From Actinomycetes bacterium (GTDB taxonomy: Bacteria; Actinomycetota; Acidimicrobiia; IMCC26256; PALSA-610): a stretch of DNA of 64,000 nt. The stretch lies in contig JANYBW010000054.1 of NCBI GenBank assembly GCA_025360585.1, forward strand, positions 25,847 to 89,846. Reading direction: 5' to 3'. The notes beneath the pieces are model-generated. The model did no database searches. It saw only the letters and a program-made list of their open reading frames with translations, and was not told the origin of the DNA. Positions 7,817 to 64,000 of this stretch are shown piece by piece. The position numbers were made by a program, and so were the translations under genes. Position 1 is the first letter of the stretch. The number at the start of each line of letters is the position of its first letter.

Positions 7817-7879
7817 ATCGCGGGTTTCCGCGATATCAGATTTGCAAATGGCGGCCCGCCTGGGCCGCCATTTTCTTTC
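7817..7879 (+). terminator. tandem hairpins forming a rho-independent terminator after groES
   Basis: First hairpin: ATCGCGG-gttt-CCGCGAT (7817-7834). Second hairpin: an 11-bp perfect stem AATGGCGGCCC-gcct-GGGCCGCCATT (7847-7872), followed by TTCTTTC. Confidence 0.75.
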
Positions 7880-7942: not shown

Positions 7943-8482
7943 ATGGTGTCAACACCGAAGCATTCGGGGAAGTCCGCGCCGGTTTCGCAGCGGCGACTGT
8001 CTCGACGCCATGACCGTGGTGAATTGCTGCTCGAGCTCTTGATGACGACATCGATCGTCACGGTCTGTGTGATCGGGTTGGTGGGTGCGCTCGGCTCGAA
8101 TTTTCGTTTCAGTGCGGTGAGTCGAGAAATCAACAACGCGGATCAGCTCCTTGGCCGTTATGCAGAAGCGCTGAGTGCAGCCCCGTACGAGACTTGTTCG
8201 GTCAGCAGCGTGCCCTACCAAAAAGTTGGGGTGAGCGCGATTCCGAACAGTTCGTTGCCGAAAGATGTTGCGACAGGAGTTCCCGGAGCAGTTGTTGCCA
8301 ATTCCTTTTCCTTCGCGTTCGCAGTTGATGGAGTCCAGTACTGGAACAACGACGTAGCGCCGGCCACTTTTCGAAGCCAGTGCACTGGGCCCGACACCGG
8401 AATTCAGCAACTCGTACTCTCGGTCAGCGCGGGTGATGGTTCACTCGTGCGGCGAACCACAATCGTGAAGCGCGCACCATGA
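7943..8482 (+). CDS. pilin/pseudopilin-like protein (atypical prepilin-type N-terminus)
   Basis: Basic leader ending ...HDRG, followed by ELLLELLMTTSIVTVCVIGLVGALG (Glu at +5 and a hydrophobic helix). ATG 7943 sits behind GGGAG. The ORF track gives TTG 7925. The stop overlaps the next start. Confidence 0.5.
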   Translation: MVSTPKHSGKSAPVSQRRLSRRHDRGELLLELLMTTSIVTVCVIGLVGALGSNFRFSAVSREINNADQLLGRYAEALSAAPYETCSVSSVPYQKVGVSAIPNSSLPKDVATGVPGAVVANSFSFAFAVDGVQYWNNDVAPATFRSQCTGPDTGIQQLVLSVSAGDGSLVRRTTIVKRAP

Positions 8483-9048
8483 AACCGTTGGCATCGATCA
8501 GCCGATTTCTGACTGCACGGAAACACTGCGACAGTCGGCAATCCGATCAACACGGGATGACGCTCGTTGAAATGATCATCAGCATCAGCATGCTGACCGT
8601 GATCACGGTGCCGCTGACGAGCGCGGCGATGATGTTCGCGCAGCACGGTGCCGACGTCGACAAAAGTTTGAGCGACGACACGACAGTGCGCAGTATTGAG
8701 GCGAGTTTTGTAGCCGATGTGCAAAGCGCCACTTCGGTCGTTCTGAACGATGCTGCGGGTTGTGCCGGCACAACGGCCGCGATTGCAACCTTGCAATGGG
8801 GCGAGCCGGGCTTGCAAATACGAACGTCCTGGTACGCCGAAACTATCGCGGGAACCCTCACAATGGTCAGGCGGCGTTGTTCGAACGGCAGTTTGGTTTC
8901 GTACGAACGAGTCGGTGAAGTTGCATCGGCCCCGACCGTGGTGTGTGCGGTGACGTGCACGACGGATCGATTGACGTCGGTAACGATGACAGGCACCGCG
9001 ACCAATGGTGCGATCTTTGCGTTCACTGGAAACCGCAGGTCGCTATGA
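8479..9048 (+). CDS. prepilin-type N-terminal cleavage/methylation domain protein (minor pilin-like)
   Basis: Leader ...SDQHG, then MTLVEMIISISMLTVITVPL. This is the classic G|(F/M)TLxE motif followed by a hydrophobic helix. Confidence 0.65.
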   Translation: MKPLASISRFLTARKHCDSRQSDQHGMTLVEMIISISMLTVITVPLTSAAMMFAQHGADVDKSLSDDTTVRSIEASFVADVQSATSVVLNDAAGCAGTTAAIATLQWGEPGLQIRTSWYAETIAGTLTMVRRRCSNGSLVSYERVGEVASAPTVVCAVTCTTDRLTSVTMTGTATNGAIFAFTGNRRSL

Positions 9049-9557
9049 AGCAGTGGATTCTAAATCGCGTCGCTACTGGTCACAGTCGGCGCGGCCAGCC
9101 GCGCGACCAGCGCGGCGCCTCACTCATTTTGGCGTTGATGTTTACGACTTCGATCGCGTTCATGCTCGGAGTTTCCCTCGATTTCGCGGCGGCCTCATTT
9201 GGGCAGTCGAATGCTTCAACGAGTCTGCGCAATGGCCAGCACGCGGCTGAAGGCGCGATTCACATCATGATTCATTCGATGCGTCGCGATATCACGATTG
9301 GGCGCGAGGGCTTGACCTGTTCGTCGGTGACCCTTGCTGTTGGTGATGGCCGCACCGTGACAACCGCGTGCGTACCAGAGCCGGGAAGCGGCGCTTTGCT
9401 CAACCAAGGCTCGGGCGCGTATGCGAATCGTGCCGTGGCGATGACCAGTTCGATCGCTGGAGTTACCTATATCCGCGCCCGTGTCCTGTTCAACGACGCC
9501 GGCGGCGCGCAACCCGGCAAGCTTGTGCAAATCGTCGAGTGGAGCAACGCGATATGA
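9045..9557 (+). CDS. TadG/TadE-like pilus-assembly (pseudopilin-like) protein
   Basis: Leader ...RDQRG, then ASLILALMFTTSIAFMLGVSLDFAAASF, which resembles the Tad N-terminal segment. ATG 9045 overlaps the upstream stop (ATGA). Confidence 0.45.
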   Translation: MKQWILNRVATGHSRRGQPRDQRGASLILALMFTTSIAFMLGVSLDFAAASFGQSNASTSLRNGQHAAEGAIHIMIHSMRRDITIGREGLTCSSVTLAVGDGRTVTTACVPEPGSGALLNQGSGAYANRAVAMTSSIAGVTYIRARVLFNDAGGAQPGKLVQIVEWSNAI

Positions 9558-10642
9558 AGCGGGCCGACAAATTGGGTTTCACGCTCGTGGAACTCTTGCT
9601 CACAATTTCGATTATGGGGATCTTGGGTGCCGTCGTGGTTTATGGCGCGGGTGATTTTGGCACCGCGAGCGGTTGCAAAACCGACGCGAAACTGCTTCGT
9701 TCTGCTGAAGCATCGTTTTACGTCGCCAATGGGCGTTACGGCACCCAGCCCGAGCTGGTGACCTTCGGCGCGTTGCGTACGCCATCACAGCTGCACGACG
9801 TACAAGTAGCTGGCCTGAATTTCACCGTGACGGAGCTCGGAAAATGTCAGAACTCTGGGACGGCCGACGCTGCAACAATTCCAACCGTGATCGTGACTTC
9901 GCAACAGGGTGCCACCGCGTTCGCAACCGGTAGCGATGGCACACCAATTCCAGGCGTTGCATTTTCGACGAGTCCCTCGGGTGCAGGTTCGTGGACTGTC
10001 GCGGGAACCAGCGACGTCACCGGTACCGCAAAATTGAATGTGGCCGCGGCGACGTATGACATTGCCGCGACCTACCTGGGTGCGACTAATCGCTTGCTTG
10101 GCGTAGCCATCAAAAACGGAACGTTGGCGGTATTTCCAGTGGTGACTGCAACGACGCAATTTCGAAGTTCCGCGCTCGCGCCGATGGCAGGAGCGACCTT
10201 CGAAGTGCGTCAGGCTGGTACGACTTCGTGGAACATCATTGGCACTACCGACATCTCGGGCAATGTCATTGCGAAGCTTCTCCCCGCCGACTACGACATT
10301 CGGGTCACGTGGAATGGTGTCACGACAACCCGCCAAGCGATCCAAATCAAACAAGATGGCGATGTCCTGTTTCGCACAACGGTGCTCGCCACCAAGGTCA
10401 TGGACTCCAGTGGTGCCGCGATCTCCAAAGCTTCGGTCACCATCACTGCGGTCGGCATTGCGAATTCGGCAGTCGCCTTGACGACCGATGCGACGGGGTG
10501 GGCCCGTACTGAAGTGCTCCCCGGTAGCTATGACGACGCGGTTCGCTATATGCCGGCAGGTTCGAGCGTCGCGAACACCGCGACCATGAACGCGGTCCCG
10601 GTGGGCGCGACCACTGTCAACGTTGAAATCAGGGTGGCGTAA
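9554..10642 (+). CDS. type IV pilin-like protein with three beta-sandwich (CarboxypepD_reg-like) repeats
   Basis: Short leader MKRADKLG, then FTLVELLLTISIMGILGAVVVYG (canonical). Three modules follow with the pattern TD.(S/T)G.....L.P..YD. ATG 9554 overlaps the upstream stop (ATGA). Confidence 0.7.
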   Translation: MKRADKLGFTLVELLLTISIMGILGAVVVYGAGDFGTASGCKTDAKLLRSAEASFYVANGRYGTQPELVTFGALRTPSQLHDVQVAGLNFTVTELGKCQNSGTADAATIPTVIVTSQQGATAFATGSDGTPIPGVAFSTSPSGAGSWTVAGTSDVTGTAKLNVAAATYDIAATYLGATNRLLGVAIKNGTLAVFPVVTATTQFRSSALAPMAGATFEVRQAGTTSWNIIGTTDISGNVIAKLLPADYDIRVTWNGVTTTRQAIQIKQDGDVLFRTTVLATKVMDSSGAAISKASVTITAVGIANSAVALTTDATGWARTEVLPGSYDDAVRYMPAGSSVANTATMNAVPVGATTVNVEIRVA

Positions 10643-10643
10643 G

Positions 10644-13600
10644 GTGAAACGGTCGATTGTTCAACAGTTCTTGGCCGTATCCATCGTTGTGGGATCGGCG
10701 CTTGCGGCGACGTTGGTTCCTTCGCAACCCGCTTCCGGCGCCCCTGCCTATTCGACCCTGGTCGCGGCAGTGACTCCGTTAACATCCGGCACGGCTCCGT
10801 TCGATCTTGCCGCGAACTGTTCTCCCGCGCTGCAAGTCGGCGTGAGCGATGTCATTCCCGTGTCCGCGAATGTGACTGGTCAATCCCATTGCCCCAGCAT
10901 GGACATGAGCGGCGATCCAACCGTCGATCGAATCGTGCGGACCATGGACACGATCGATATACGTATCAATTGGTCGATCAGCAACGTGCCGGCGACCAGT
11001 GGGTATTCGATCGGTGGCGTGAACGCGGATACGAATGTCGTTGTGCAGTCGACGCTGCCGCTCGGCACGCAAGGATTGCCAGCTGCGGTTTGGCTTGCGA
11101 TTCCAACGGGGTGCTACACCTCATCGACCGGAACCCCCGCGGTGACGCCGTTGTCGAGCGTTAGTAACTCAAGCCGAACGCTGACGTGCAATTTGGGTCA
11201 TCGATCAACTGGCTCAATCGGCAATATCACCGCGACGCTCCAGACGCGCGGTAACGCGGGCGACGGTCAACAGTTGGACATCATCGCGACGATGTACTCC
11301 GCGACGACCAAGGCCGCCGTGGTGCCTGATGCCGCAAGCGCGCCGCAAACGTTTTGGAGCTCGGCCGCTCCGCGATACAATCTGAAGCTCGATTCGGCGA
11401 CGATGCAATCCAAATTCCCGGTGTACGGTCCGGCGCACGAATTGGGCCGGCTCATGATTTTGGGTGCGGTCGTGCCGTCGGCACGAGGTCAAGAAACCTT
11501 GTTGGCCAGTTCATGGGCCGGCGGGAATTCAGTACCGACCGGTACACCGCTCAGCCTTGATATCGATATGTCTGCGTTCAGTTCCGTCGCCGCGGCGGAT
11601 GGAAATGGCACCATCGGTGGTCGATCGGTGCTCTACACGTGGGGACGATCCGGCAACGGTTGCGGTTCCGCAGGTGGCGCGTCGGCCGCGCCAAACGCTG
11701 CACCGCTGCTGAATGACTTTTACTGGGGGGTGACAGGGGCCGGTGGCTCAAACGCGAAAGTGAAATGTGCGCAAGTGGGCGGAGCTGGGGGCAATATTCA
11801 TATCGATGCCTTCGGTGCGGACTCGTCGCTCTCTGGCGCGCCACCAGCGATCTGGGGAGGCTGGGTCGCGATTTGGATTCCGGTCGCGGCGATCCCGGCA
11901 ACCCCTCCTTCGGTACTGGCACGGGTCTCGCACTTCGATCCGCAATCGATGCCGAGTGCGAACTTTCCAAACGGTCAATCGAATTTCGGTGGATCAGGAG
12001 AATTGTGTTCACTCGTCGCCGTTGGTGGAAACAACCCTGTCAATTGTGAACCGGGGCTTGTCATTAGCGCCTCGCAGACCGCGCACACGGCCGCAAACGA
12101 CAACGAAGGCTATGGAAGCGTCGTGCTGGCGGCGGCTTCGAGCAGCCAAACTGGGATGTTCCTGTTGGATCAAGACGTTCGCGCCGGAAGCAACGTTGGT
12201 GTTTTGGCGACTGAACCCACGAGTCCCGGCACGACCGGTATCAGCTACGGCCATGGTTATAGCGATTCAAATTTGCAAGTTCGATCCGGAGAGACATTCC
12301 TTTCGTCCGTCAGCATCGGTAACAACGGTGGTGGCGTCAACAGCGCCGCAGCAACGTGCAATAAGTGGGACAACCGAACGCTGACGTTGACCGATTTCGG
12401 TGACCTGACGAATCCTGTGGCTGCAACCCAAGGCAACCCCTCATACACAGCGAGCACGTGGGCGGTCGTGAACACCAGCGGCACCTTGCCCGATGTCTGG
12501 CATCCGAAAAACGGTTGGAATCGAAGCGCGCCATTTAACGTAACGACGCCCCATAACTTGCAGGCCGACCCCGCGTATTACGCGCTGGAGTTTGGAGCCG
12601 GTGAATACGATCCGTACACTCCGGCTCCGACCGCGCCCGCTCAACTCGCAATGCGCAACGCAACTTGTCGGAATCAGGATTCCCCAGCTGGTTGGTTCAC
12701 GAATCCGTTGGACCCAGCGATCCAAGCCTGGATCGACGCAACCTATGGCGCTGGATCAGGTATCGCTCCCAAAGATGTGGTGAACAAAGCGCGAATTCGG
12801 TTACTCGACCCGCTTGGCCCCGATTCCTATGTCGATATGGCCGTGCGGTTGACGGCTCGTTCGACGTTTGGTCCGACGGCACCGATGCCCCTGAAGAACA
12901 CTGCGATCCCATACGGCACCCGACTTGCCGCGCAGGGCGCGTACACCGACTCGATTCTTGCCTCGCGTTCTGGTGCTCAATACATCAACGGTTGGTGGGT
13001 CGGAACCTACGACCCTGGGACCGACGGCGGAGCCGTCGGGGATCGCATGTCACTCAGTGGACTCGACACTCGTGAGCGCGTGTACTCGCTGTGGAACAGT
13101 CCGGTGGGGTTGAACGGAACGCCAACGGTGATCGCTGGTCAAGATGTTTGGTGGAGGGTCGACACGACGGCGTTTTCGTTGATCCAACGATTGCCCGCTG
13201 GACAGCCTGCATATCCGTTGCGCTCGGTCACCGTCGTTCCTGCATCATTGACGTATGTTCCGGGAACTGGCTGCAAAATCGCTCCGACGTATGTGCCGAC
13301 CACACCCTGTGCGACCCGGATGGATCCTGCATCGGTAATTGCGAACGCAGACGGCACGACGACATTGGTCTGGGACATCGGAAATGTCGTTGCGACGAAT
13401 GCGGGTCTGATGGTGTCGGTGATCTTCCGGACGACCACAGACCCACTCACGAACTCAGGAACGCTCGCGGCCGTGCAGTCGTTGAGCGAATCAGTGAACT
13501 CGAATGGCACGAGCAACGATCGCTATCCCGCGTGCCAAAACGCCACAGTCGCTAGGACCAATCGAGCTATCCCAATCACAGGGTACGGCCCAGCGGAAAC

Positions 13601-15167
13601 GCTGGCGATCCCGACGGTGCAGTGTGATACGGGCGCGTACAACTATCGGCTTGGGATGCAGCCTGTCACGATCAACAACGCAGCAAGCTACGCCGTTTCC
13701 GGTCGGGTTGCCGCGCAACAAATCGAGGTGAACGATGCCGACGACGGCACCGGTACCAAAGTGGCGTACACGATCACCGCGAAGAACTTTGACACCGCGG
13801 CGGTGCCTGATTCCGATGTGATCATGGTGTTGCCGTTTGTCGGCGACGCAAGAATTCCGTCGAGCGCGTTTTCAGGAACCCTTGGTTTGCAAGGCGTATC
13901 GACAACGGACGTCACCGCAGCCACTGCGAACCCACTACCGACAAGTAGCGGTGCCGTGCCGAACCAACCCGCCGGAACGACGTTCTACTTCACGTCGGCG
14001 CTGCCAAACACCATCAATGGAGACGCATGGACGAGCAGCAACCTCGCGAGTGGCGCAACGAAGTGGTGCTTGCAAAATCAGTTTGGCTCCAGTGGATGCC
14101 CAACAACCATGGCGAACGCGACTGCGGTACGCGCGATCTCCGGCTCGCTCGCCGGTGCTGGAACAACTCGTGCCTACACGTTGCGATTCGCCTCTACGAG
14201 CAACCGTTCGGGCGACATCTATACATTTCGGGCCGCCGTTCGGGCTTCCAAGTTCGTGTTGCTGAACACAATGCCGGATACATCGATGCAGGTCACTGAA
14301 TCGCAGATCGGCGACACGGTGTGGGAAGACACCAATGGCAACGGTGTCCTGGACTCCAACGAAACCGGGCGGTTTTCCGGTGTTCGGCTGCAGCTGCGCG
14401 ACGTTAAGGGTACCGTGATCGCGTCGACCGTTACCGATACGAACGGCGCCTACCTCTTTGCTGGATTGCACTCCGGTAGCTATTCGGTGCGCGTTGTGTT
14501 GAGCAATGGTGTTGACGGACTGAATGATCGGTATCCGGCGTATTCGCCGAGTTTCGACCTGGACAACGGCATCGCTGGTGGTGCCGATGGAGATCCAGAT
14601 GCTCAAACCGCGGTGGTGCTGGGGCGAGGCCAACCGCGCGGCGATGTTGATTTTGGATTTTTTGCGGGATCGATTGGCGGCGTGGCTTGGAACGATACAA
14701 ACAAGAACGGTCTGCGCGATAGCGCTGAAACTGTTGCCGCCAACGTGTCGATTGGTCTGTTTGGGATCGAAGTCGGTGGCGCAGTTTTGACGCGTTCGGT
14801 GTTGACCGCTGCCGATGGCTCCTACAGTTTTGTTGGTTTGCGGGCGGGGGCGTATGCACTGACTGCGGGTCCGTTGCCGCCGTCGAGCGCGGTCGGGGTG
14901 CTGGGATCCGGTTTCGGTTCAGTATCGGGGGCAACAGTGTCGTCGATCGCATTGGGCACCGGCGCAGCGCTCACCGGCTACAACTTTTCGATTCGTGGTC
15001 CGTCGATATCGGGCACGATCTATGTGGATATTGATGGTGATGGCAAACAGACGGCCGCGGATCAGGCGATCAGTTCAGTGAACGTTTCGCTTTCGGTGCC
15101 GGGTGGTGCGAACCCACCATCGATCACTACGACGCTGACCGACCCGGCGGGACGATTCAACTTCTAA
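10644..15167 (+). CDS. very large secreted surface protein (DUF11-like region plus C-terminal SdrD-B/Cna-B-like repeats)
   Basis: GTG 10644 lies one nt after the pilin stop. Sec-type signal MKRSIVQQFLAVSIVVGSALAATLVPSQPASGA. A TIGR01451-like segment KVAYTITAKNFDTAAVPDSDVIMVLP. C-terminal repeats of the form IGDTVWEDTNGNGVLDSNE...TDTNGAYLFAGLHSGSYSV. No LPXTG motif and no terminal transmembrane segment. Confidence 0.75.
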   Translation: MKRSIVQQFLAVSIVVGSALAATLVPSQPASGAPAYSTLVAAVTPLTSGTAPFDLAANCSPALQVGVSDVIPVSANVTGQSHCPSMDMSGDPTVDRIVRTMDTIDIRINWSISNVPATSGYSIGGVNADTNVVVQSTLPLGTQGLPAAVWLAIPTGCYTSSTGTPAVTPLSSVSNSSRTLTCNLGHRSTGSIGNITATLQTRGNAGDGQQLDIIATMYSATTKAAVVPDAASAPQTFWSSAAPRYNLKLDSATMQSKFPVYGPAHELGRLMILGAVVPSARGQETLLASSWAGGNSVPTGTPLSLDIDMSAFSSVAAADGNGTIGGRSVLYTWGRSGNGCGSAGGASAAPNAAPLLNDFYWGVTGAGGSNAKVKCAQVGGAGGNIHIDAFGADSSLSGAPPAIWGGWVAIWIPVAAIPATPPSVLARVSHFDPQSMPSANFPNGQSNFGGSGELCSLVAVGGNNPVNCEPGLVISASQTAHTAANDNEGYGSVVLAAASSSQTGMFLLDQDVRAGSNVGVLATEPTSPGTTGISYGHGYSDSNLQVRSGETFLSSVSIGNNGGGVNSAAATCNKWDNRTLTLTDFGDLTNPVAATQGNPSYTASTWAVVNTSGTLPDVWHPKNGWNRSAPFNVTTPHNLQADPAYYALEFGAGEYDPYTPAPTAPAQLAMRNATCRNQDSPAGWFTNPLDPAIQAWIDATYGAGSGIAPKDVVNKARIRLLDPLGPDSYVDMAVRLTARSTFGPTAPMPLKNTAIPYGTRLAAQGAYTDSILASRSGAQYINGWWVGTYDPGTDGGAVGDRMSLSGLDTRERVYSLWNSPVGLNGTPTVIAGQDVWWRVDTTAFSLIQRLPAGQPAYPLRSVTVVPASLTYVPGTGCKIAPTYVPTTPCATRMDPASVIANADGTTTLVWDIGNVVATNAGLMVSVIFRTTTDPLTNSGTLAAVQSLSESVNSNGTSNDRYPACQNATVARTNRAIPITGYGPAETLAIPTVQCDTGAYNYRLGMQPVTINNAASYAVSGRVAAQQIEVNDADDGTGTKVAYTITAKNFDTAAVPDSDVIMVLPFVGDARIPSSAFSGTLGLQGVSTTDVTAATANPLPTSSGAVPNQPAGTTFYFTSALPNTINGDAWTSSNLASGATKWCLQNQFGSSGCPTTMANATAVRAISGSLAGAGTTRAYTLRFASTSNRSGDIYTFRAAVRASKFVLLNTMPDTSMQVTESQIGDTVWEDTNGNGVLDSNETGRFSGVRLQLRDVKGTVIASTVTDTNGAYLFAGLHSGSYSVRVVLSNGVDGLNDRYPAYSPSFDLDNGIAGGADGDPDAQTAVVLGRGQPRGDVDFGFFAGSIGGVAWNDTNKNGLRDSAETVAANVSIGLFGIEVGGAVLTRSVLTAADGSYSFVGLRAGAYALTAGPLPPSSAVGVLGSGFGSVSGATVSSIALGTGAALTGYNFSIRGPSISGTIYVDIDGDGKQTAADQAISSVNVSLSVPGGANPPSITTTLTDPAGRFNF

Positions 15168-17683: not shown

Positions 17684-19081
17684 ATGAGCCGTCCAGCAAC
17701 GCTTGGTGAACTGCGCGCAAGCGGATGGGTTTCACGCCCCGTTAAAGACGAGTTGCGCGAACACGCGATCGAAGCGCTTGCCGCGGGAACTCCCCTGGTG
17801 GAGGGCGTGCTCGGCTATGAAGACACCGTGTTGCCACAGCTCGCGAATGCTGTGCTGGCCGGTCACGACGTGATTTTTCTGGGCGAACGCGGTCAGGCAA
17901 AAACTCGTACGATCCGTTCACTGGTGAACCTGCTGGATGAGTGGATGCCTGTCGTTGCGGGCTCCGAAATTAACGATGATCCGTACCATCCAAGTTCTGC
18001 GCACGCGCGTCATTTGATCGCGGATCGCGGCGATGAAACCCCAATCGAATGGGTGCACCGCAGTAAGCGTTACGGAGAAAAACTTGCGACGCCCGATACC
18101 TCGATCGCCGATCTCATTGGTGAAGTTGACCCGATCAAAGTTGCGGAAGGGCGCTATCTCTCGGATGAACTGACGCTCCATTACGGCATGGTGCCGCGCA
18201 CGAACCGAGGTATTTTCGCGATCAACGAACTTCCGGATCTTGCCGAGCGAATTCAGGTCGGGTTGTTGAACGTTCTGGAAGAGCGCGATATTCAAATCCG
18301 CGGCTACAAGATTCAACTTCCAATCGATATCGTGCTGTTCGCTTCCGCGAACCCCGAGGACTACACGAACCGCGGGCGAATCATCACGCCGCTCAAGGAC
18401 CGTTTCGGCGCACAAATTCGCACGCACTATCCGTTGGAAACCTCGATCGAGGTCGCGATCATTCAACAAGAAGCCCGGCCGATGGCGGCGGCTGGAGTCT
18501 CAGTCGTTGTACCAGAATTCATGCTCGAACTGATTGCCGAAATATCGCAACAGGCCCGCAGGTCTCCCCACGTCAACCAACGCTCCGGCGTCTCGGCCCG
18601 CATGTCGATTACGAACTACGAAACGCTGGTCGCGAACGCAACCCGTCGCGCGTTGATTGCCGGCGAACGCGAAGTGGCGCCGCGAATCAGCGACCTCGAT
18701 GCGATCATTGCCTCGACCGCGGGCAAGGTTGAAATCGAAACCGTTGAGGACGGTCGTGAAGAATACGTCCTGGATCGCATCATGAAATCAGCGGTGTTGG
18801 AAGTGTTCCGGGCGCGGGTGAAGCCTGAGCACCTTGGAGCGGTCGTCGCGGGATTCGAGGGCGGCTATATGGTGAACACCGGCGAAGATATTCCGACCAA
18901 GGAGTACGTCGAGTCGCTGGAGAAACTCGCGATGGGTCCGATTCTTGCAGATCTTGGTGTCGGCGAGCAGGCCGCCGCGGTCGCGAGTGCGGTCGAGTTC
19001 GTGCTGGAGGGGATGCACCTCACCAAGCGCTTGAACAAGGACGAATTACGCGGGCGAGCGACGTATCGGGGCCGGGGCTAA
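17684..19081 (+). CDS. AAA+ ATPase, Mg-chelatase ChlI/BchI-like
   Basis: Walker A GERGQAKT and Walker B-like GIFAINELPDL. The segment LLNVLEERDIQIRGYKIQLPIDIVLFASANPEDY is typical of ChlI-type ATPases. Confidence 0.75.
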   Translation: MSRPATLGELRASGWVSRPVKDELREHAIEALAAGTPLVEGVLGYEDTVLPQLANAVLAGHDVIFLGERGQAKTRTIRSLVNLLDEWMPVVAGSEINDDPYHPSSAHARHLIADRGDETPIEWVHRSKRYGEKLATPDTSIADLIGEVDPIKVAEGRYLSDELTLHYGMVPRTNRGIFAINELPDLAERIQVGLLNVLEERDIQIRGYKIQLPIDIVLFASANPEDYTNRGRIITPLKDRFGAQIRTHYPLETSIEVAIIQQEARPMAAAGVSVVVPEFMLELIAEISQQARRSPHVNQRSGVSARMSITNYETLVANATRRALIAGEREVAPRISDLDAIIASTAGKVEIETVEDGREEYVLDRIMKSAVLEVFRARVKPEHLGAVVAGFEGGYMVNTGEDIPTKEYVESLEKLAMGPILADLGVGEQAAAVASAVEFVLEGMHLTKRLNKDELRGRATYRGRG

Positions 19082-20099: not shown

Positions 20100-21317
20100 T
20101 TACGTCACTCGGCGGGCTCGGATGATCTCGGCAACCGATTCCGCGGACCGCCGAGGCTGACGGTTTCGGTCGAAGAGCCCGAAGTTCACGTTGTAGCCGT
20201 GAGTCCATTCGTAGTTGTCGACCCCAGTCCAAAAGAACACTCCCCGAACGTCGATGCCATCGCCCAGAGCGTCTTCCACGAACCCCAACGACTCTCGGAG
20301 GTAGCTCTCGCGACGATCGTCGTCATCGTTGTCGCGTGGAGTTCCCAAACCAAGCTCACACACCAGCAGCGGACGGTCGGGCAACTCGTCGGCTAATCGG
20401 CGAATTGTGAGCGCGAGCCCTTCGGCCCACGGCGCGTAGCCGAGCGGCCCCACTGTCGCGTTGTTCGGAAACGGTTTGAAGGTCATGTCGCGATCGACCG
20501 CCGTCGCGTTATAGTACGAAAAGCCAATAAAATCAGCGCATTCTCTCAGATCGGGTATCTCGACTGCGCCTCGGCCGGGGATCGCCAATACGCCGTCGCG
20601 GTCCGCCCGAATCCAGGCGTTCCACATCAATTCGTCGACCGTCGCAGTGTTCTTTTCGGCCGGCAGCGAATCGTCGATGGGAAACAGCGGTGAGAGATTG
20701 TGCACCGTCGCGACTGGTTGCGCGCCGCCGCGTAATTCGCGCCACGCGTCTCGTTGCGCGAGCAGCATGCCTCGATACGCGTCGAGGAACTTCGCGGGAT
20801 CGAGCAGGCCGGGTGGGTACTCACCGAGTAGATAGCTCGCTGCCGAGTACGCGAATGGTTCGTTGATGGGCTGCCAACCTGCGACCAAATCGCCGAAAGT
20901 TTCTGCGCAAAACGCGACGTGGCGCGGCCAGTAGTAGCCGCGAGCCTTGTCATCGATGAAGCCGTGTTCATCGCTGAACCAGCCCGGAAGCGTGAAGTGA
21001 TGCAAACAGAGCCACGGATCGATTCCTGCTTCGTGTGCCGCGGTCAGTATCTCTCGGTAACGATCGATCGCCGCGTCGTCGCGCCGCCCCATCTCGGGCT
21101 CGATACGCGCCCAATCGATCCCCAGCCGATGATTTCGCAACCCGTGATCTGCGTACAGCGCGAAATCTTCGGCGAAGTGAGTCGCGAACCCGTTTCCCGA
21201 ACCCGATTGCGGCGCGCGTCCTTGTTCTTCCCAACGTAGCCAGTCGGAATTGCGAGCCGCTCCTTCGGTTTGAGTCGCGGATGTCGCGGTACCCCAGAGA
21301 AACGATTCAGGAAACAT
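20100..21317 (-). CDS. glycoside hydrolase family 1 beta-glucosidase
   Basis: N-terminus FPESFLWGTATSATQTEGA and the acid/base motif PINEPF. A C-terminal FFWTGVDNYEWTHGY motif. Confidence 0.9.
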   Translation of the reverse strand: MFPESFLWGTATSATQTEGAARNSDWLRWEEQGRAPQSGSGNGFATHFAEDFALYADHGLRNHRLGIDWARIEPEMGRRDDAAIDRYREILTAAHEAGIDPWLCLHHFTLPGWFSDEHGFIDDKARGYYWPRHVAFCAETFGDLVAGWQPINEPFAYSAASYLLGEYPPGLLDPAKFLDAYRGMLLAQRDAWRELRGGAQPVATVHNLSPLFPIDDSLPAEKNTATVDELMWNAWIRADRDGVLAIPGRGAVEIPDLRECADFIGFSYYNATAVDRDMTFKPFPNNATVGPLGYAPWAEGLALTIRRLADELPDRPLLVCELGLGTPRDNDDDDRRESYLRESLGFVEDALGDGIDVRGVFFWTGVDNYEWTHGYNVNFGLFDRNRQPRRSAESVAEIIRARRVT

Positions 21318-21390
21318 GTCGGCAACCCTACGGGGCGAACGCTCGGCGCTACCCCGTGGCCCGATCAGAGCGACGAGCTACCCTTGGCGA

Positions 21391-23388
21391 ATGGCGCGAT
21401 TTCGGTATTCACGATGGGACGGATCACAAGTTGGCTTCGATCTGGATGCGGATTCGTTGCTCTCAGAAATGACCGACGATCTGCTCTATCACGGCGATCT
21501 GAATGCCGCGATGCGCCGGATGATGCAACAAGGATTTCAAGATCGTGAAGGCCGCGACGTTCAAGGCCTGCGCGAGATGATGCAGAAGCTACGCGAACGC
21601 CGTCAGGAAATGCTTGATCAATACGATCCTGGCGGCATCTTCGAAGACGTCGCGAATCAACTCGAAGAAATCCTCGATCAAGAGCGCGACGGCATCGAAC
21701 GGCGGCGCGCCGAGGCGCGCGAATCCGGCGATCAGCGCCGCGAGGAAATCGTCAACGATCTCGCGCGCCAACGCCGCGAACAGCTCGATCAAATGCCGCC
21801 CGATCTCGCGGGTCGAGTCACCGAACTCCAGAACTACGACTGGATGGACGACGACGCCCGCGACAAGTTCGAGGCGTTGATGGAAGACCTCAAAAAACAA
21901 CTTCTCGACAATATGTTCAACCAAATGTCGAAGGGGCTCGCCGAAATGAGCCCTGAGGAATTGCAACGGACCAAAGACATGATGGCGGAGCTAAACCAGA
22001 TGCTGCGCGAACGTGAAGACGGAAACGAGCCTGATTTTGATGGCTTTATGGACCGCTACGGCGACATGTTCCCGAGCAACCCTCAAAGCCTCGATGAACT
22101 CTTGCAGTCGATGGCCGCTTCGATGGCCGCGATGCAACGAATGCTGAATTCAATGAGCCCCGAACAGCGAGCACAGCTGATGGAGCTCTCCAACGCGCTC
22201 CTCGACGACATGGATCTCAAGTGGCAGGTCGATGAACTCGGACGCAATCTACAGAACGCGTTTCCGCGCATGGGCTGGGGCCAAGGCGAAGGGTTCCGCG
22301 GCGATGAGCCCATCCCGCTGAACTCAATGGGCAGCATGCTCGATCAGATCGCAGATCTCGACACGCTCGAACAAATGATGCAAAACGCGACCGAGCCGGG
22401 CAAACTCGCGGAGGTCGATCCAGAACAACTCCGCGACCTCCTCGGAGAAGACGCCGCGAACTCACTCGCAGAATTGCAAAAGCTTGCGAAACAACTAGAA
22501 GAAGCTGGCCTCATCGAACAAACCGACGGTCGCTATGAGCTCACACCGAAAGCAATCCGAAAAATTGGCCAGAACGCGCTCGGCGATTTGTTCAAACGGA
22601 TGTTGCAAGACCGTGCGGGTAAGCACAAAATCGAACGCGCGGGCGCGGGCCACGAACGCGCCGATGAAACCAAACCCTACGAATTTGGTGATCCGTTCCA
22701 TCTCGATGTTGCGCGCACGCTCCGCAACGCGGTCTATCGCCAAGGCACGGGAACCCCGGTTCGGCTGACGCCCCAAGATTTCGAAGTCGAACGCACAGAG
22801 CTCGTCACCCGATCAGCAACGGTGTTGCTCCTCGATGTCTCGATGTCGATGGAAATGCGCGGACGATTCCTCGCCGCGAAAAAAGTCGCGATGGCGCTGC
22901 ACTCACTTATCAGCTCGCAATTCCCGCGCGACTATCTCGGACTCGTGAGCTTCGGGCGCGTTGCGAGAGAAGTTCCTGCCAACAAACTCCCGGAAGTCAC
23001 CTGGGATTTTGAATGGGGCACGAACATGCAACACGCAATGATGTTGGCGCGCAACATGCTGAACAAGCAGCATGGGCAAAAACAAATCATCATGATCACC
23101 GACGGCGAACCAACCGCGCACATCGTCCCCGGAGGCGGGACATTCTTCGACTATCCACCGGATCCGGTCACGATCGAACAAACCCTGCGCGAAGTCATGC
23201 GCTGTACGAAAGACAAAATTCGCATCAACACATTCTGTCTCGAAGAGAGTTTCTATCTACGCGAGTTCGTCGAGCGCATGATGCAAATGAACCGGGGTCG
23301 GGCATTCTTCACGACCCCCGAAAACCTCGGCGACTACGTACTCGTCGACTTCCTCGACCAAAAAAAGCAACACCGAAGAGCTGGTTGA
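21391..23388 (+). CDS. VWA-domain protein (ChlD-like partner of the AAA ATPase)
   Basis: N-terminus MARFRYSRWDGSQ, a long acidic coiled middle region, and a C-terminal VWA domain with MIDAS LLLDVSMSM and IIMITDGEPT. ATG 21391 chosen inside ORF 21316-23388. Confidence 0.8.
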   Translation: MARFRYSRWDGSQVGFDLDADSLLSEMTDDLLYHGDLNAAMRRMMQQGFQDREGRDVQGLREMMQKLRERRQEMLDQYDPGGIFEDVANQLEEILDQERDGIERRRAEARESGDQRREEIVNDLARQRREQLDQMPPDLAGRVTELQNYDWMDDDARDKFEALMEDLKKQLLDNMFNQMSKGLAEMSPEELQRTKDMMAELNQMLREREDGNEPDFDGFMDRYGDMFPSNPQSLDELLQSMAASMAAMQRMLNSMSPEQRAQLMELSNALLDDMDLKWQVDELGRNLQNAFPRMGWGQGEGFRGDEPIPLNSMGSMLDQIADLDTLEQMMQNATEPGKLAEVDPEQLRDLLGEDAANSLAELQKLAKQLEEAGLIEQTDGRYELTPKAIRKIGQNALGDLFKRMLQDRAGKHKIERAGAGHERADETKPYEFGDPFHLDVARTLRNAVYRQGTGTPVRLTPQDFEVERTELVTRSATVLLLDVSMSMEMRGRFLAAKKVAMALHSLISSQFPRDYLGLVSFGRVAREVPANKLPEVTWDFEWGTNMQHAMMLARNMLNKQHGQKQIIMITDGEPTAHIVPGGGTFFDYPPDPVTIEQTLREVMRCTKDKIRINTFCLEESFYLREFVERMMQMNRGRAFFTTPENLGDYVLVDFLDQKKQHRRAG

Positions 23389-24400: not shown

Positions 24401-25291
24401 TCACTGATCGTCAGCGGTTTCGCGAGCCTTTCGTTCAATTCGGGCTTCGATCGTCTGTTCAGAATCGATGTCGCTCCAGCGTAGGAAATCCGCTGAACAC
24501 CGGTTGAGCTCAGCGCCAGGAAGGAGCCCAACCACTTCGACTTCGCTGACCTCCGTGCGTTCTTGTGCCGCGAGGCCGCGTACGTGCTGTACCGCCTCCT
24601 CCAGGCCAGTCTGTTCGAGATCAACGAGGTTCATCGAGACTTGCGTGCGCTCGCTGTGTGGGAGCTCGAAGCCCAACGCTCGGACTCCCGCAAGACCGCC
24701 AGAGGTTTCGCGGGTTGCCCGGGCAATTCGAAACGCCACTTCGACATCGCGAGCCAACAGCACGCAGTTCACGGCGATAAGCGGTCGCCGCATGCTGATC
24801 GCCGTGGCCCCCAATATCGGGTGGGGCTCCGAGGGCCCGTAATCGGGCGCCAGTAGCCGGAAGGCCTTGCGTCGCACTTCCGGTAAGGGGCGGTTGCCCT
24901 CGTGCGCTTCGTCGTACATGAAGCACGGCACGCCAAAGGCCTCCGACCACCAGCGGGCAAACGAATGCGCGGCTTCGCGGGCTCGATGTCGTTCCGCGGT
25001 CGTAGGCCCGAGTGGCACGAAGGGTACGACGTCGAGTGCGCCGAGGCGTGGGTGTACGCCGTCGTGATCGGCAATGCTCACGTGGGCTGCGACCGCGCGC
25101 GCCAGTTGGCGTACCGCTCCTTCTGCGTCGCGGGGGCCAGGGCCGGCCAGTGTGAACACGCTGCGGTTGTGGTCGATGTCTTCGTGGCGATCCAACAAGG
25201 AGCGGCCACAGGCGATGCTCAGCAGATCGAGCGTCTCGGTGTCGCGGCCTTGGGAAACATTCGGCACGGCTTCCAACATTGCACTGAGCAT
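24401..25291 (-). CDS. glutamate formimidoyltransferase (FT domain only)
   Basis: N-terminus MLEAVPNVSQGRD resembles the ECVPNFSEGR motif. The roughly 296-aa length fits a stand-alone formiminotransferase domain. Confidence 0.75.
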   Translation of the reverse strand: MLSAMLEAVPNVSQGRDTETLDLLSIACGRSLLDRHEDIDHNRSVFTLAGPGPRDAEGAVRQLARAVAAHVSIADHDGVHPRLGALDVVPFVPLGPTTAERHRAREAAHSFARWWSEAFGVPCFMYDEAHEGNRPLPEVRRKAFRLLAPDYGPSEPHPILGATAISMRRPLIAVNCVLLARDVEVAFRIARATRETSGGLAGVRALGFELPHSERTQVSMNLVDLEQTGLEEAVQHVRGLAAQERTEVSEVEVVGLLPGAELNRCSADFLRWSDIDSEQTIEARIERKARETADDQ

Positions 25292-25304
25292 AAGGTGCGC
25301 AGCG

Positions 25305-26339
25305 ATGCGAATTGGGTTGGCCCTGCCTCATTACGACTGTTCGATCGCTGGAGAAAACCCATTGCGGTTCGAAACCGTTCTGCATTACGCGAGTGAAGCC
25401 GAACTCCTCGGGTTCGATTCAGTGTGGGTTTCGGATCATCTGACGTGGGATCTCGAAAAGTACGGCGGTGGAATGGCCCGCTACGGCGTCTTCGAAGCGA
25501 TGGCGACGCTGGCCGCGCTGGCTCGATCGACTTCTACGGTGCGGATCGGTTCGCTCGTTTTGTGTGAGGCGCTGCGGGCTCCTGGCTTGCTCGCCAAGGC
25601 GATTGCCGCGATCGATCAGCTCAGCGGGGGCCGACTCGATATTGGCGTTGGTGCAGGGTGGTACGCACCCGATTACGACGCGATTGGCTCGACGATGGCG
25701 AGTCCGGGTGAGCGCCTCGCTCGACTTGATGATTACCTCACGATTCTTCGAGGTCTCTTGCATACGGGAGATGCGATAACCCACCTTGGCAGGCATTATC
25801 AAGTGCAAGCGATGACCAATGAGCCGCGACCTCACCAACCACGGGTGCCATTGTTCGTAGGGGGCAAGGGCGACCGGATGCTGGCACTCATCGCCCGCCA
25901 CGGGGTCGGCTGGAATACCTGCTGGAACGTGACCTTTGATAATTATCGCGAACGGCTGAGCGTGTTGGAACGGGCTTGTGAGGCTTCGAATCGAGACCCA
26001 GCAACCATCTGGCGCTCGCTTGGCCTCTATACGCTTTGCGGCGATGGCGAACGCGATCTGCAACAACGTTTTGATCACATGGTTGCGGTGTCTCCCAATG
26101 GGGTGCTGGATGGCATGACGCTCACCGAGTGGCGTAAGGGGCGTTTAGTCGGGACGGTTCAGCAAATCACCGAACAAGCCGAAGAATGGGTGAGCCTCGG
26201 TGTCGAAACCATCGTCTGTGGAGTTGGAGCCGTGCCGTTTCAAACGACGGGTCTCGACGACATTGCCAGTATTGCCGAGGCATTGCGAGGCTTGGCCTCT
26301 TACGGGGCCCGAAACACGAATTGCAAAACGGAGGGCTAG
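25305..26339 (+). CDS. LLM-class (luciferase-like) F420-dependent oxidoreductase
   Basis: MRIGLALPHY...GFDSVWVSDHL...RLDIGVGAGW is the typical LLM pattern. ATG 25305 chosen because the 5' part of ORF 25074-26339 is antisense to the formimidoyltransferase gene. Confidence 0.8.
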   Translation: MRIGLALPHYDCSIAGENPLRFETVLHYASEAELLGFDSVWVSDHLTWDLEKYGGGMARYGVFEAMATLAALARSTSTVRIGSLVLCEALRAPGLLAKAIAAIDQLSGGRLDIGVGAGWYAPDYDAIGSTMASPGERLARLDDYLTILRGLLHTGDAITHLGRHYQVQAMTNEPRPHQPRVPLFVGGKGDRMLALIARHGVGWNTCWNVTFDNYRERLSVLERACEASNRDPATIWRSLGLYTLCGDGERDLQQRFDHMVAVSPNGVLDGMTLTEWRKGRLVGTVQQITEQAEEWVSLGVETIVCGVGAVPFQTTGLDDIASIAEALRGLASYGARNTNCKTEG

Positions 26340-62161: not shown

Positions 62162-64000
62162 ATGATGAGCCAATGGAGATTTGCTTCGCGGCTCGCTCGT
62201 CGTGAAGTGCAACGGAGACCAGGGCGCACCGTCTTGGTCATGCTGCTCATTGCTCTGCCAATTGCCGCAATGGTTTTTGCATCAGTGTCCTATCGCACCA
62301 GCCAAGACGGCGCGAGCGAAAAATTCACCCGCCGCTTCGGGGCTGCCGACTATGCAATCGAAAACGCGGCGACACCGACGGATATTGCAACGTTTCCTAC
62401 CGGAACTCGGGTGTTGCGCAGCGCCGAGGTGACCGTTGGCGTGCTGCCCACCGACTCGCTTCCGGCGGGCTGGACGATGGTGTCGAATTTGGATCTCGGC
62501 GATCCGATGACGCGCGGGATGTTTCGCATGGATTCGGGCCGTGCGCCACGCGCGGCTGGCGAAATCGTGTTGACTCGTACCCTCGCCCGGGCGTGGCACG
62601 CGCAGCCAGGCACGAAGCTCCAGTGGCGTCGCCCACAGGGCGCGTTCACCGTCGTGGGTGTCGGTGTTGCGGTCGATAATTTCCGAAGCGAAATCGTGTT
62701 TGTTGCGGGTGCAGTCGAGCAAGTTGTGGCTGCGAGCGATGAGCGCCCCGGCGCAATATCAGTGAATTACACCGATCGCATCGATGTGCCCGGTGTTCCG
62801 ACGAGCGCCGACGCGTTGCGACAGTTCGCACATCACACCGCGGGTGCGTTGCAATACAGCGATCGGTACGGCCATCCGGGAAGCACCAAGGTGAAAGTCG
62901 CGGCGATCGCGTGGGGTTGGGTTGTCGGTGCGCTGTTGCTTGGAATTGTCGGCATCATTGTCTCCGCTGCGTTTGCGACGAGCGCACGCCGTCAACTTGT
63001 CACGCTCGGGCAACTGGCTGCGAATGGATCTCCGGAACGGCTCATGCGTAGGACCATGGTCTTGCAGGGGGCATGGAGCGGGGTGTACGGCAGCGGCTTG
63101 GGCCTCGTCGCTGGTGCAGCACTCTTGATCAGCGGCCGAGATCAAATTGAATCGTTGACCCGCCACGAGATTGGCCCGTACCAATGGGGGCCAGCACTGT
63201 TGGCGATCATCGTCGTGACCGGAGTGATTGCGGCAATGACTGCCGCCTGGTTTCCGGCCCGCAGCGCCGCGAAAGTCTCGGTGCTCAGCGCGCTCGCCGG
63301 ACGGCGCCCGATGAAATCGGTGCCGAAACGAATGGTGCCAATTGGCGCCGGGCTTTTTGGCTCCGGGATCTTGATCCTCGCCCTCGTAGCCGCTGCGGCG
63401 AAGAGCGGGAGCGGCAACGCCGCCGCCGCCGCCGCCGTGCTTGGTGGTGTGTTGGTGTTGGCGGGTGCTTGTTGCGTGAGTCCGGCCATCGTGTCGATAC
63501 TCGAACCCCTCGCCGCTCGAATCGGCGGCGCGGCTCGGGTGGCGGCGCGCAGCGTTGGCCGGGCGCGCGCTCGGAGCGCGGCGGTCGTCACCGCGTTGGC
63601 CGTTGCGAGTGCGATCGCGGTGGCCTCGGGAACGGTCGTGGCTTCGCGCTGGCCCGATGAAAAAAACCAACTTCCGTATTTGCCGCGCAACGTCGTTGAA
63701 ATTCAGCACTTTTTGTCGCCGGCAACGGAACCGTCTTCGGAATTACGCAGCTCCGAGCAGTTTGGCGCCGTTCCGGCTTCAGTGTGGTCGCGGTTCGCCG
63801 CTGTTCTTCCCGCGGCGAAGTGGGTGCCGCAGCATCACGCAGAAGTTTCGCCCAAGTCGATTGATCCCGGACGAGTTGGAACTCGGGCTGAGTCTGATTT
63901 GATCCAGAACGGTTATGTCTTGGTCGCCGACTCACGTGTACTTGCGGCACTGCACATCTCGGCGCGCGATCAGGCTGCACTGCAAACCGTTGGTGTCATG
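62162..64000 (+). CDS. FtsX-family ABC transporter permease (3' end lies outside the window)
   Basis: Absent from the ORF track because it has no stop in the window. I translated it from ATG 62162 and the frame stays open for all 613 codons to position 64000. It begins MMSQWRFASRLARREVQRRPGRTVLVMLLIALPIAAMVF and contains the FtsX motif region WFPARSAAKVSVLSALAGR. Confidence 0.8.
   Translation, partial: MMSQWRFASRLARREVQRRPGRTVLVMLLIALPIAAMVFASVSYRTSQDGASEKFTRRFGAADYAIENAATPTDIATFPTGTRVLRSAEVTVGVLPTDSLPAGWTMVSNLDLGDPMTRGMFRMDSGRAPRAAGEIVLTRTLARAWHAQPGTKLQWRRPQGAFTVVGVGVAVDNFRSEIVFVAGAVEQVVAASDERPGAISVNYTDRIDVPGVPTSADALRQFAHHTAGALQYSDRYGHPGSTKVKVAAIAWGWVVGALLLGIVGIIVSAAFATSARRQLVTLGQLAANGSPERLMRRTMVLQGAWSGVYGSGLGLVAGAALLISGRDQIESLTRHEIGPYQWGPALLAIIVVTGVIAAMTAAWFPARSAAKVSVLSALAGRRPMKSVPKRMVPIGAGLFGSGILILALVAAAAKSGSGNAAAAAAVLGGVLVLAGACCVSPAIVSILEPLAARIGGAARVAARSVGRARARSAAVVTALAVASAIAVASGTVVASRWPDEKNQLPYLPRNVVEIQHFLSPATEPSSELRSSEQFGAVPASVWSRFAAVLPAAKWVPQHHAEVSPKSIDPGRVGTRAESDLIQNGYVLVADSRVLAALHISARDQAALQTVGVM

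Follow-up and report, generated by a model that had tools for sequence, protein, structure and literature searches.

A modular type IV pilin with tandem immunoglobulin-like modules, encoded last in a conserved unit of four pilin-like genes in a member of the Acidimicrobiia

What would a bacterium display by joining a type IV pilin to a row of immunoglobulin (Ig)-like modules, and where on a fiber would such a protein sit? The question is raised by ORF4, the fourth open reading frame (ORF) of a pilin cassette in a 64,000-nucleotide stretch of contig JANYBW010000054.1 (assembly GCA_025360585.1), called the window below. Modular pilins at the tip largely account for the functional diversity of type IV filaments, and the two that have been characterized both come from Streptococcus sanguinis. 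An earlier note on this DNA had described the ORF4 product as a canonical type IV pilin N terminus followed by three Ig-like modules, had called the combination unusual, and had proposed that it would place adhesin-like folds along or at the tip of a fiber. We report here that the architecture is confirmed, that it is already catalogued, and that ORF4 is, on balance, probably a modular minor pilin of a tip or priming complex, with its Ig region as stalk or adhesin, in an Acidimicrobiia-like monoderm actinobacterium.

A short pilin joined to three Ig-like modules

The ORF4 product begins with the leader MKRADKLG, followed by FTLVELLLTISIMGILG, and its signal reads MKRADKLG↓FTLVELLLTISIMGILGAVVV (here and below the arrow separates positions -1 and +1): a short basic leader, hydrophobic Phe at +1, Glu at +5, and a hydrophobic stretch of about 20 residues. 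Cleavage is predicted after Gly8, and G8, F9, L11, and E13 are invariant in an alignment of 23 pilin-module sequences. The type IV pilin signature (IPR012902, PF07963, TIGR02532) was detected both by Pfam N_methyl (25.4 bits, cutoff 21.2) and by NCBIfam TIGR02532 (22.6 bits, cutoff 16.3), which bears out the canonical N terminus and eight-residue leader described earlier; the strings quoted in the earlier note, including TSDVTGTAKLNVAAATYDIAATY, TTDISGNVIAKLLPADYDIRVTW, and TTDATGWARTEVLPGSYDDAVRY, were all found in the protein. A longer ORF opening at GTG-9368 was rejected as the gene because ORF3 ends within an ATGA that includes the ATG at 9554 and because the leaders of the orthologs, which are 38 to 48% identical to ORF4, are likewise short and basic.

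The region behind the signal is modeled as a small but complete pilin. A first AlphaFold2 (AF2) run with 4 sequences modeled the C-terminal sandwiches well and left the head at a predicted local distance difference test score (pLDDT) of <50; a second run, on a 124-sequence alignment that included short pilin homologs, gave a mean pLDDT of 90.1 and a predicted template modeling score (pTM) of 0.70. In this model helix α1 spans residues 11-30 and 38-59 with a break at GAGDFG, and is followed by a short helix (65-71) and a β-hairpin (81-86/89-94), which together form the pilin “lollipop” with a minimal, two-stranded head. The protein has exactly two Cys residues, C41 and C98, and with the AF2 model they substantiate the short pilin-like head with two Cys that had been described from the translation. 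At least 90% of the aligned sequences (n = 124) keep these residues, which probably pair as a disulfide and so fasten the end of the module to α1.

A profile of about 105 amino acids (aa), built from the 23-sequence module alignment, matched solved type IV pilins with E values from 3.5e-14 to 1e-6, among them Geobacter PilA-N (3.5e-14), Myxococcus xanthus PilA (2e-12), GspG (6e-10), S. sanguinis PilE1 (5e-10), and Thermus PilA4 (7.5e-9); the alignment covered 88 positions in the case of PilA4 and α1 in the other solved pilins. The same profile retrieved 1,254 proteins, and the 120 listed are pilins of 100 to 175 aa, which the source records name “type IV pilin” or “GspG.” Few of these listed short pilins carry an organism name, and those names are of Acidimicrobiia and other Actinobacteria. 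The ORF4 module is 34 to 45% identical to short pilins of the type placed after PilC. It is a complete short pilin in its own right, homologous to the pilins of about 110 to 120 aa encoded beside PilB-PilC-PilT in Acidimicrobiia relatives (in L007/L008, where L numbers denote loci, the short pilin lies in a PilB-PilC-pilin-PilT locus). The module is much better conserved (54 to 63% identity) than the Ig modules behind it (28 to 47%). Since it is elsewhere fused to SBP_bac_5, to FG-GAP, and to two copies of CBM_2, it appears to be a general carrier module in this lineage.

The fusions to SBP_bac_5, a solute-binding domain of ABC transport systems, lie outside the window, in proteins P0126, P0147, and P0149 (E = 1e-46 to 1e-49). 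One such gene, L011:697-3027, is followed directly by an ABC permease gene (BPD_transp_1_N). IPR000914 does not occur in the accessible portion of the text of the 2021 modular-pilin dataset (PMC8179133).

C terminal to the pilin module, three stretches of ORF4 match Pfam CarboxypepD_reg (PF13620; 37.3 bits, cutoff 32.3), and the AF2 model folds this region into three sandwiches of seven strands each. Score and fold agree in placing the modules with PF13620, as the earlier note had suspected, a family of the transthyretin-like clan, and three separate sandwiches exclude a single ordinary pilin globular domain. The mutual resemblance of the three modules of about 80 aa also held up when the repeats were aligned with each other: pairwise blastp gave E values of 9e-13 (A versus B), 2.5e-8, and 2.5e-5, and Smith-Waterman z scores over 1,000 shuffles were 13.5 (A versus B), 6.3, and 4.5, and the real score was equaled in 0, 0, and 1 of the 1,000 shuffles. 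Between the pilin head and any of the Ig modules the z score was about 0. By these alignments the three modules are homologous to one another.

Foldseek searches of the PDB with the Ig region returned Bacillus anthracis TIE, BcpA, SpaA/SpaC, and the B domains of SdrD (E = 1e-12 to 1e-6). Cross-links of the CnaB isopeptide type were considered and rejected, as no Lys or Asn is invariant in residues 113-362 among the four closest orthologs, where G, T, Y-D, W, and P account for most of the invariant positions. There is no LPXTG motif in ORF4, whose C terminus reads ...VNVEIRVA. Given the lack of both an invariant Lys/Asn and an LPXTG motif, the Ig modules are not isopeptide-linked domains of a sortase-assembled pilin.

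How uncommon is this combination? A word-indexed search found only 4 relatives, and the extreme rarity that this number suggested was rejected when an exhaustive search returned 1,058 matches. We examined 154 proteins, namely, the best 150 of the 1,058 matches and the relatives from the word-indexed search, and in 23 of them both the pilin module and the Ig module of ORF4 are present. The number of Ig copies in the 23 ranges from 1 to 10 and is most often 3; one further locus has 11. In the long relatives (P0006, P0008, P0010, P0014, and L014:10559-13592; 654 to 929 aa, 6 to 11 Ig modules), runs of nearly identical repeats of about 83 aa precede a distinct last module, and this near identity implies that the long forms arose by recent tandem expansion. 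The gene in L014 is split into parts of 80 and 910 aa; the probable cause is a frameshift, the assembly being one of long reads. A scan of genome contigs found one relative only, in a metagenome-assembled genome labeled “Acidimicrobiia bacterium.”

ORF4 joins a pilin module to a domain signature foreign to type IV pili, as do the modular pilins defined by Raynaud et al. in 2021 (PMC8179133). In their InterPro survey IPR012902-PF13620, represented by 66 proteins, already ranks third in frequency among modular-pilin architectures (Dataset S1), so that the description of the combination as unusual was overstated; the architecture is catalogued, and its presence here is not surprising. The same authors suggest carbohydrate binding for PF13620 pilins. 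Beyond their catalogue, we found no experimental study of this class in the literature.

The pilin unit and its downstream neighbor

Four pilin-like genes are translationally coupled here, and ORF4 comes last among them. The order of the region is groES, a GC-rich hairpin with a T tract, and then ORF1 to ORF5 (Table 1), and three ATGA start/stop overlaps join ORF1 through ORF4. The unit occurs in seven loci, the window and L002, L003, L009, L013, L014, and L015, and in each of the six others an Ig-repeat pilin follows ORF1 to ORF3. In L009 the unit stands directly after PilB-PilC with no other candidate major pilin, and the PilB there is 59% identical to the PilB beside the short pilin of L007.

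Table 1. Features of the pilin cassette and their positions in the window
Feature	Position	Strand	Basis
Hairpin downstream of groES, GGCGGCCC-GCCT-GGGCCGCC then ATTTTCTTT	7850..7879	+	By eye, RNAfold
ORF1, pilin-like, 179 aa, G↓ELLLE then hydrophobic helix	7943..8482	+	Motif and context
ORF2, pilin-like, 189 aa, canonical G↓MTLVE	8479..9048	+	N_methyl, TIGR02532
ORF3, pilin-like, 170 aa, G↓ASLILALMF, no Glu5	9045..9557	+	Motif
ORF4, modular type IV pilin, 362 aa	9554..10642	+	ORF and translation
Class III (prepilin) leader of ORF4, MKRADKLG	9554..9577	+	G(-1), F(+1), E(+5) readable in sequence
Short pilin module of ORF4, residues 9 to ~112	9578..9889	+	AF2 model, profile matches
Ig-like module A, residues 118-195	9905..10138	+	AF2 strands, pLDDT ~82-96; similarity to B
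Ig-like module B, residues 197-274	10142..10375	+	AF2 model, repeat statistics
Ig-like module C, residues 276-360	10379..10633	+	Best CarboxypepD_reg stretch (281-341), AF2
ORF5, 1,507 aa, Sec-type signal peptide, three SdrD_B domains	10644..15167	+	Pfam SdrD_B, E = 6.7e-35

Of the three genes upstream of ORF4, ORF2 matches N_methyl (22.4 bits, cutoff 21.2) and TIGR02532, has orthologs of 35 to 43% identity, and gives weak matches to solved pilins (E = 0.004). ORF1 has no Pfam or NCBIfam match and only a marginal profile match in the PDB, and we infer that it is a pilin from its motif and context; its orthologs in L002, L003, and L009 are 42 to 60% identical, and those in L013 and L015 carry the same G↓E-x-L-x-E motif. 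In ORF1 and these five orthologs, Glu occupies position +1 as well as +5 (G↓E-x-L-x-E-L/I-L), the Glu at +1 replacing the usual Phe or Met of class III motifs. For ORF3, no sequence match was found in Pfam, NCBIfam, or the PDB. It lacks Glu5, as do its orthologs (41 to 54% identity where measured), and in this it resembles cap pilins of the GspK/PilK type, an analogy by which it may serve as a cap. Homology of ORF1, ORF2, or ORF3 to solved minor pilins was considered and rejected, since their matches were marginal and confined to the N-terminal helix or were absent. The compact ORF3 family comprises 68 clusters of proteins of 144 to 197 aa with no Pfam domain in any; every source name among them reads “hypothetical protein,” and wherever the position was checked the gene is third in the pilin unit. 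The family may merit definition as a new family of minor pilins.

The hairpin between groES and ORF1 has a perfect, GC-rich stem of 8 bp with a T tract behind it and was confirmed by RNAfold. It resembles a terminator and would separate the transcription of groES from that of the pilin cassette. A scan for consensus terminators did not list it, and promoter and terminator counts were no higher than those in shuffled sequence.

The giant protein encoded by ORF5 is a candidate partner adhesin of ORF4. Its gene lies directly downstream of the pilin in four loci (L001, L002, L003/L004, and L013) and is present only in the clade with three Ig modules; the relatives with 6 to 11 modules lack it. The N-terminal 1,200 or so residues have no family assignment (a Pfam search of residues 1-1219 gave no match), and the SdrD_B domains that follow lead into a C-terminal half-domain ending in ...TDPAGRFNF. 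ORF5 stops inside a fourth SdrD_B-like domain (at about 15000-15167), as ...TTLTDPAGRFNF and the stop codon, with no sortase or wall-anchor motif at this end. The orthologs in L002, L003, and L013 also stop within their last domain, two of the three at the same strand (...TDATGNFNI and ...TDALGDFSL), so that TDxxGxFx[FIL] is the C-terminal strand in three of the four orthologous proteins. This conserved, open half-domain suggests completion by a strand from a partner. The idea that the Ig subfamily seen in the pilin also makes up ORF5 was rejected, as hmmsearch with a hidden Markov model (HMM) of the module found nothing significant. Nor is ORF5 an adhesin of the PilC/PilY1 family: it has domains of the SdrD_B type only and no Pfam match to PilY1 or Neisseria_PilC.

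Another short pilin of the kind matched by the module profile lies in L006, a locus of Acidimicrobiia type, which encodes PilB, PilC, a 409-aa pilin with VWA, a 167-aa pilin without Glu5, a 940-aa pilin with Big_12, and then three short pilins. The three genes between PilC and the short pilins lie at L006:5256-9807. The 409-aa pilin with VWA has the architecture of S. sanguinis PilB, and two sortase-pilin-like VWA/SpaA_4 proteins are encoded nearby on the opposite strand.

Elsewhere in the window, Pfam searches of 30 further ORFs found housekeeping genes only, no Rfam family reached its gathering score over the whole 64 kb, and the ORFs at 24621-25385 and 62759-63709, both on the minus strand, had no Pfam match at E ≤ 1e-5. 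A few kilobases downstream of the cassette, a GH1 glycosidase gene is flanked by genes for a MoxR-like AAA_5 ATPase (465 aa, 17684-19081) and for a protein that bears a VWA_2 domain at its C terminus (690 aa, 21316-23388). AAA-VWA pairs often act together.

Tip, fiber, membrane, or export

In the model that we favor, prepilin peptidase would cleave ORF4 after Gly8, and the four pilins would assemble in the membrane into a priming complex that comes to cap the pilus; a short major pilin, with its gene at another place in the genome, would make up the shaft. Helix α1 of ORF4 would be packed in the filament core, and the Ig array, about 10 nm long, would extend outward at the tip and serve as stalk or adhesive surface; in this clade the tip complex would probably hold ORF5 as its partner or cargo adhesin. 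The gene context favors such a minor-pilin role at the tip over a position along the fiber. The conserved four-pilin setting, the variable Ig copy number, the stronger conservation of the pilin module than of the Ig modules, the ATGA coupling of ORF1 to ORF4, the location of the unit after PilB-PilC in L009, and the co-occurrence of modular and short pilins in L006 are all consistent with it, and modular pilins have been predicted to sit at the pilus tip (PMC8179133). The display on a fiber that the earlier note had proposed is consistent with the homology to short pilins, the matches to solved pilins, and the conserved set of four.

Several observations weigh against our preferred model. The ORF4 head looks more like that of a major pilin than like any known minor pilin, and in L009 no separate short pilin is encoded within 10 kb of the operon. 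ORF1 and ORF3 lack significant HMM or PDB matches, and their pilin nature comes from motifs and context. No ligand-binding site is identifiable in ORF4. The 64-kb window contains no gene for PilB, PilC, PilD, PilT, or PilM and none for a short major pilin, so the pilus machinery of this genome is assumed. Finally, placement at the tip, the disulfide, the partnership with ORF5, and cleavage by the peptidase are matters that we infer.

The first two of these observations could also point to ORF4 as the major repeating subunit, which would give a “bottle-brush” fiber decorated with Ig modules. Its pilin module is related, at the identity given above, to short pilins in the major-pilin position after PilC; no other member of the unit has a major-pilin-like head; Glu5 is kept; and the L009 operon runs PilB-PilC-ORF1-3-Ig pilin with no rival for the part of major pilin. 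However, arrays of up to 10 or 11 Ig modules (about 930 aa) would be hard to pack at each rise of about 1 nm, L006 has large modular pilins alongside three short ones in one locus, modeling of S. sanguinis PilB favors the tip for bulky modules (PMC8179133), and in this genome ORF4 is the last gene of a coupled, minor-pilin-like operon and is not beside PilC. We give this arrangement a small probability. It is also conceivable that ORF4 does not polymerize at all, the pilin module acting as class III signal and membrane anchor and the Ig array lying at the surface or in the wall, much as in the archaeal “bindosome.” The fusions of the same module to SBP_bac_5 in P0126 and P0147, which must work near the membrane and one of which precedes an ABC permease gene, make the module look like a general display or anchoring device in this lineage, and they recall the archaeal sugar-binding proteins, which use class III signal peptides likewise (PMC3047682). 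Yet in seven loci, without exception, the gene shares an operon with three other pilin-like genes, and in one of these loci with PilB-PilC as well; ORF4 also keeps Glu5, the full α1, and the head of polymerizing pilins, which makes an unpolymerized anchor quite improbable.

A third possibility turns on ORF5: the four pilins might form a short pseudopilus, like that of type II secretion, that exports or escorts ORF5 through the thick wall, with the Ig modules as cargo adaptor. In the clade with three Ig modules ORF5 always follows the pilin (four loci), it carries a Sec signal and ends without a sortase or wall-anchor motif, the short homologs of the module are called “GspG” by their sources, and tip pilins of type IVb pili (T4bP) with β-rich modules do export cargo, as in CofB-CofJ and TcpB-TcpF. 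On the other hand, since the relatives with 6 to 11 Ig modules lack ORF5, cargo export is not the conserved function of the unit, and the PilT-like ATPase beside the short pilin points to a retractile pilus; we consider a pseudopilus improbable. All three alternatives fit the combination of a conserved four-pilin unit with a variable number of Ig modules less well than does a modular minor pilin at the tip.

Comparison with known systems

The closest characterized parallels to a modular minor pilin are S. sanguinis PilB, a pilin module with vWA, and PilC, a pilin module with a lectin. They likewise have an N-terminal pilin module with a class III signal and a C-terminal module, and they too are encoded among minor pilins in a monoderm. 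ORF4 differs from them in having three tandem modules of the PF13620 type (3 to 11 in relatives) and no distinct terminal binding domain, in coming from the Acidimicrobiia lineage, in belonging to a four-pilin unit with a member that lacks Glu5, and, in this clade, in being accompanied by a giant non-pilin protein.

The best structural matches of the Ig modules, namely, the CnaB/SpaA-type domains of BcpA, SpaA, and SpaC, the B repeats of SdrD, and TIE, belong to Gram-positive surface proteins. The Ig stalks of these proteins are tandem seven-stranded sandwiches of the transthyretin/prealbumin-like clan, like the modules of ORF4, but identity is only 9 to 16%, and ORF4 has neither the sortase signal nor the isopeptide triad of sortase pilins. 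Its polymerization would run through the α1 helix and not through covalent sortase links.

Two further parallels are CofB of enterotoxigenic Escherichia coli and TcpB of Vibrio cholerae, in which, as in ORF4, a pilin domain is followed by β-rich domains. PMC8179133 and a preprint describe these T4bP minor pilins as located at the tip, initiating assembly, and serving as adaptors for a secreted partner encoded nearby. We found no sequence relationship between them and ORF4; they belong to diderm type IVb systems with homotrimeric tips and carry β-repeat and lectin-like domains, whereas a heteromeric set of four pilins is indicated here.

The cassette as a whole can be compared with the PilHIJK set with PilC/PilY1 of diderm type IVa pili (T4aP), which also has four pilin-like genes in an operon, one without Glu5, and a very large Sec-dependent non-pilin protein encoded beside them, as in this clade. 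PMC7541494 and a preprint describe this set as a priming complex that becomes the adhesive tip. The cassette differs in that ORF5 lacks the PilY1 β-propeller and in that ORF1 to ORF3 have no detectable homology to PilI, PilJ, and PilK. According to the preprint, PilY1 docks on PilK through a C-terminal strand of 12 residues, and the C-terminal TDxxGxFx[F/I/L]-COOH of ORF5 would parallel this “plug.” By this analogy the five genes could form a monoderm, nonhomologous counterpart of the PilHIJK-PilY1 tip complex, ORF5 docking by β-strand complementation on ORF3 or on the Ig modules of ORF4, an idea that we put forward tentatively and think rather unlikely. If true, it would contradict the current view, given in the preprint, that monoderm T4aP are without PilY1 and depend solely on modular pilins, and it would combine two strategies for making a tip functional in one system. 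The locus offers a clean and conserved example from the Acidimicrobiia, an uncultured class of actinobacteria, with a minimal pilin carrier, a variable Ig stalk, and defined, co-encoded partners, and hence a tractable case for the role of PF13620-type modules on pili and of large non-pilin adhesins on the pili of monoderms.

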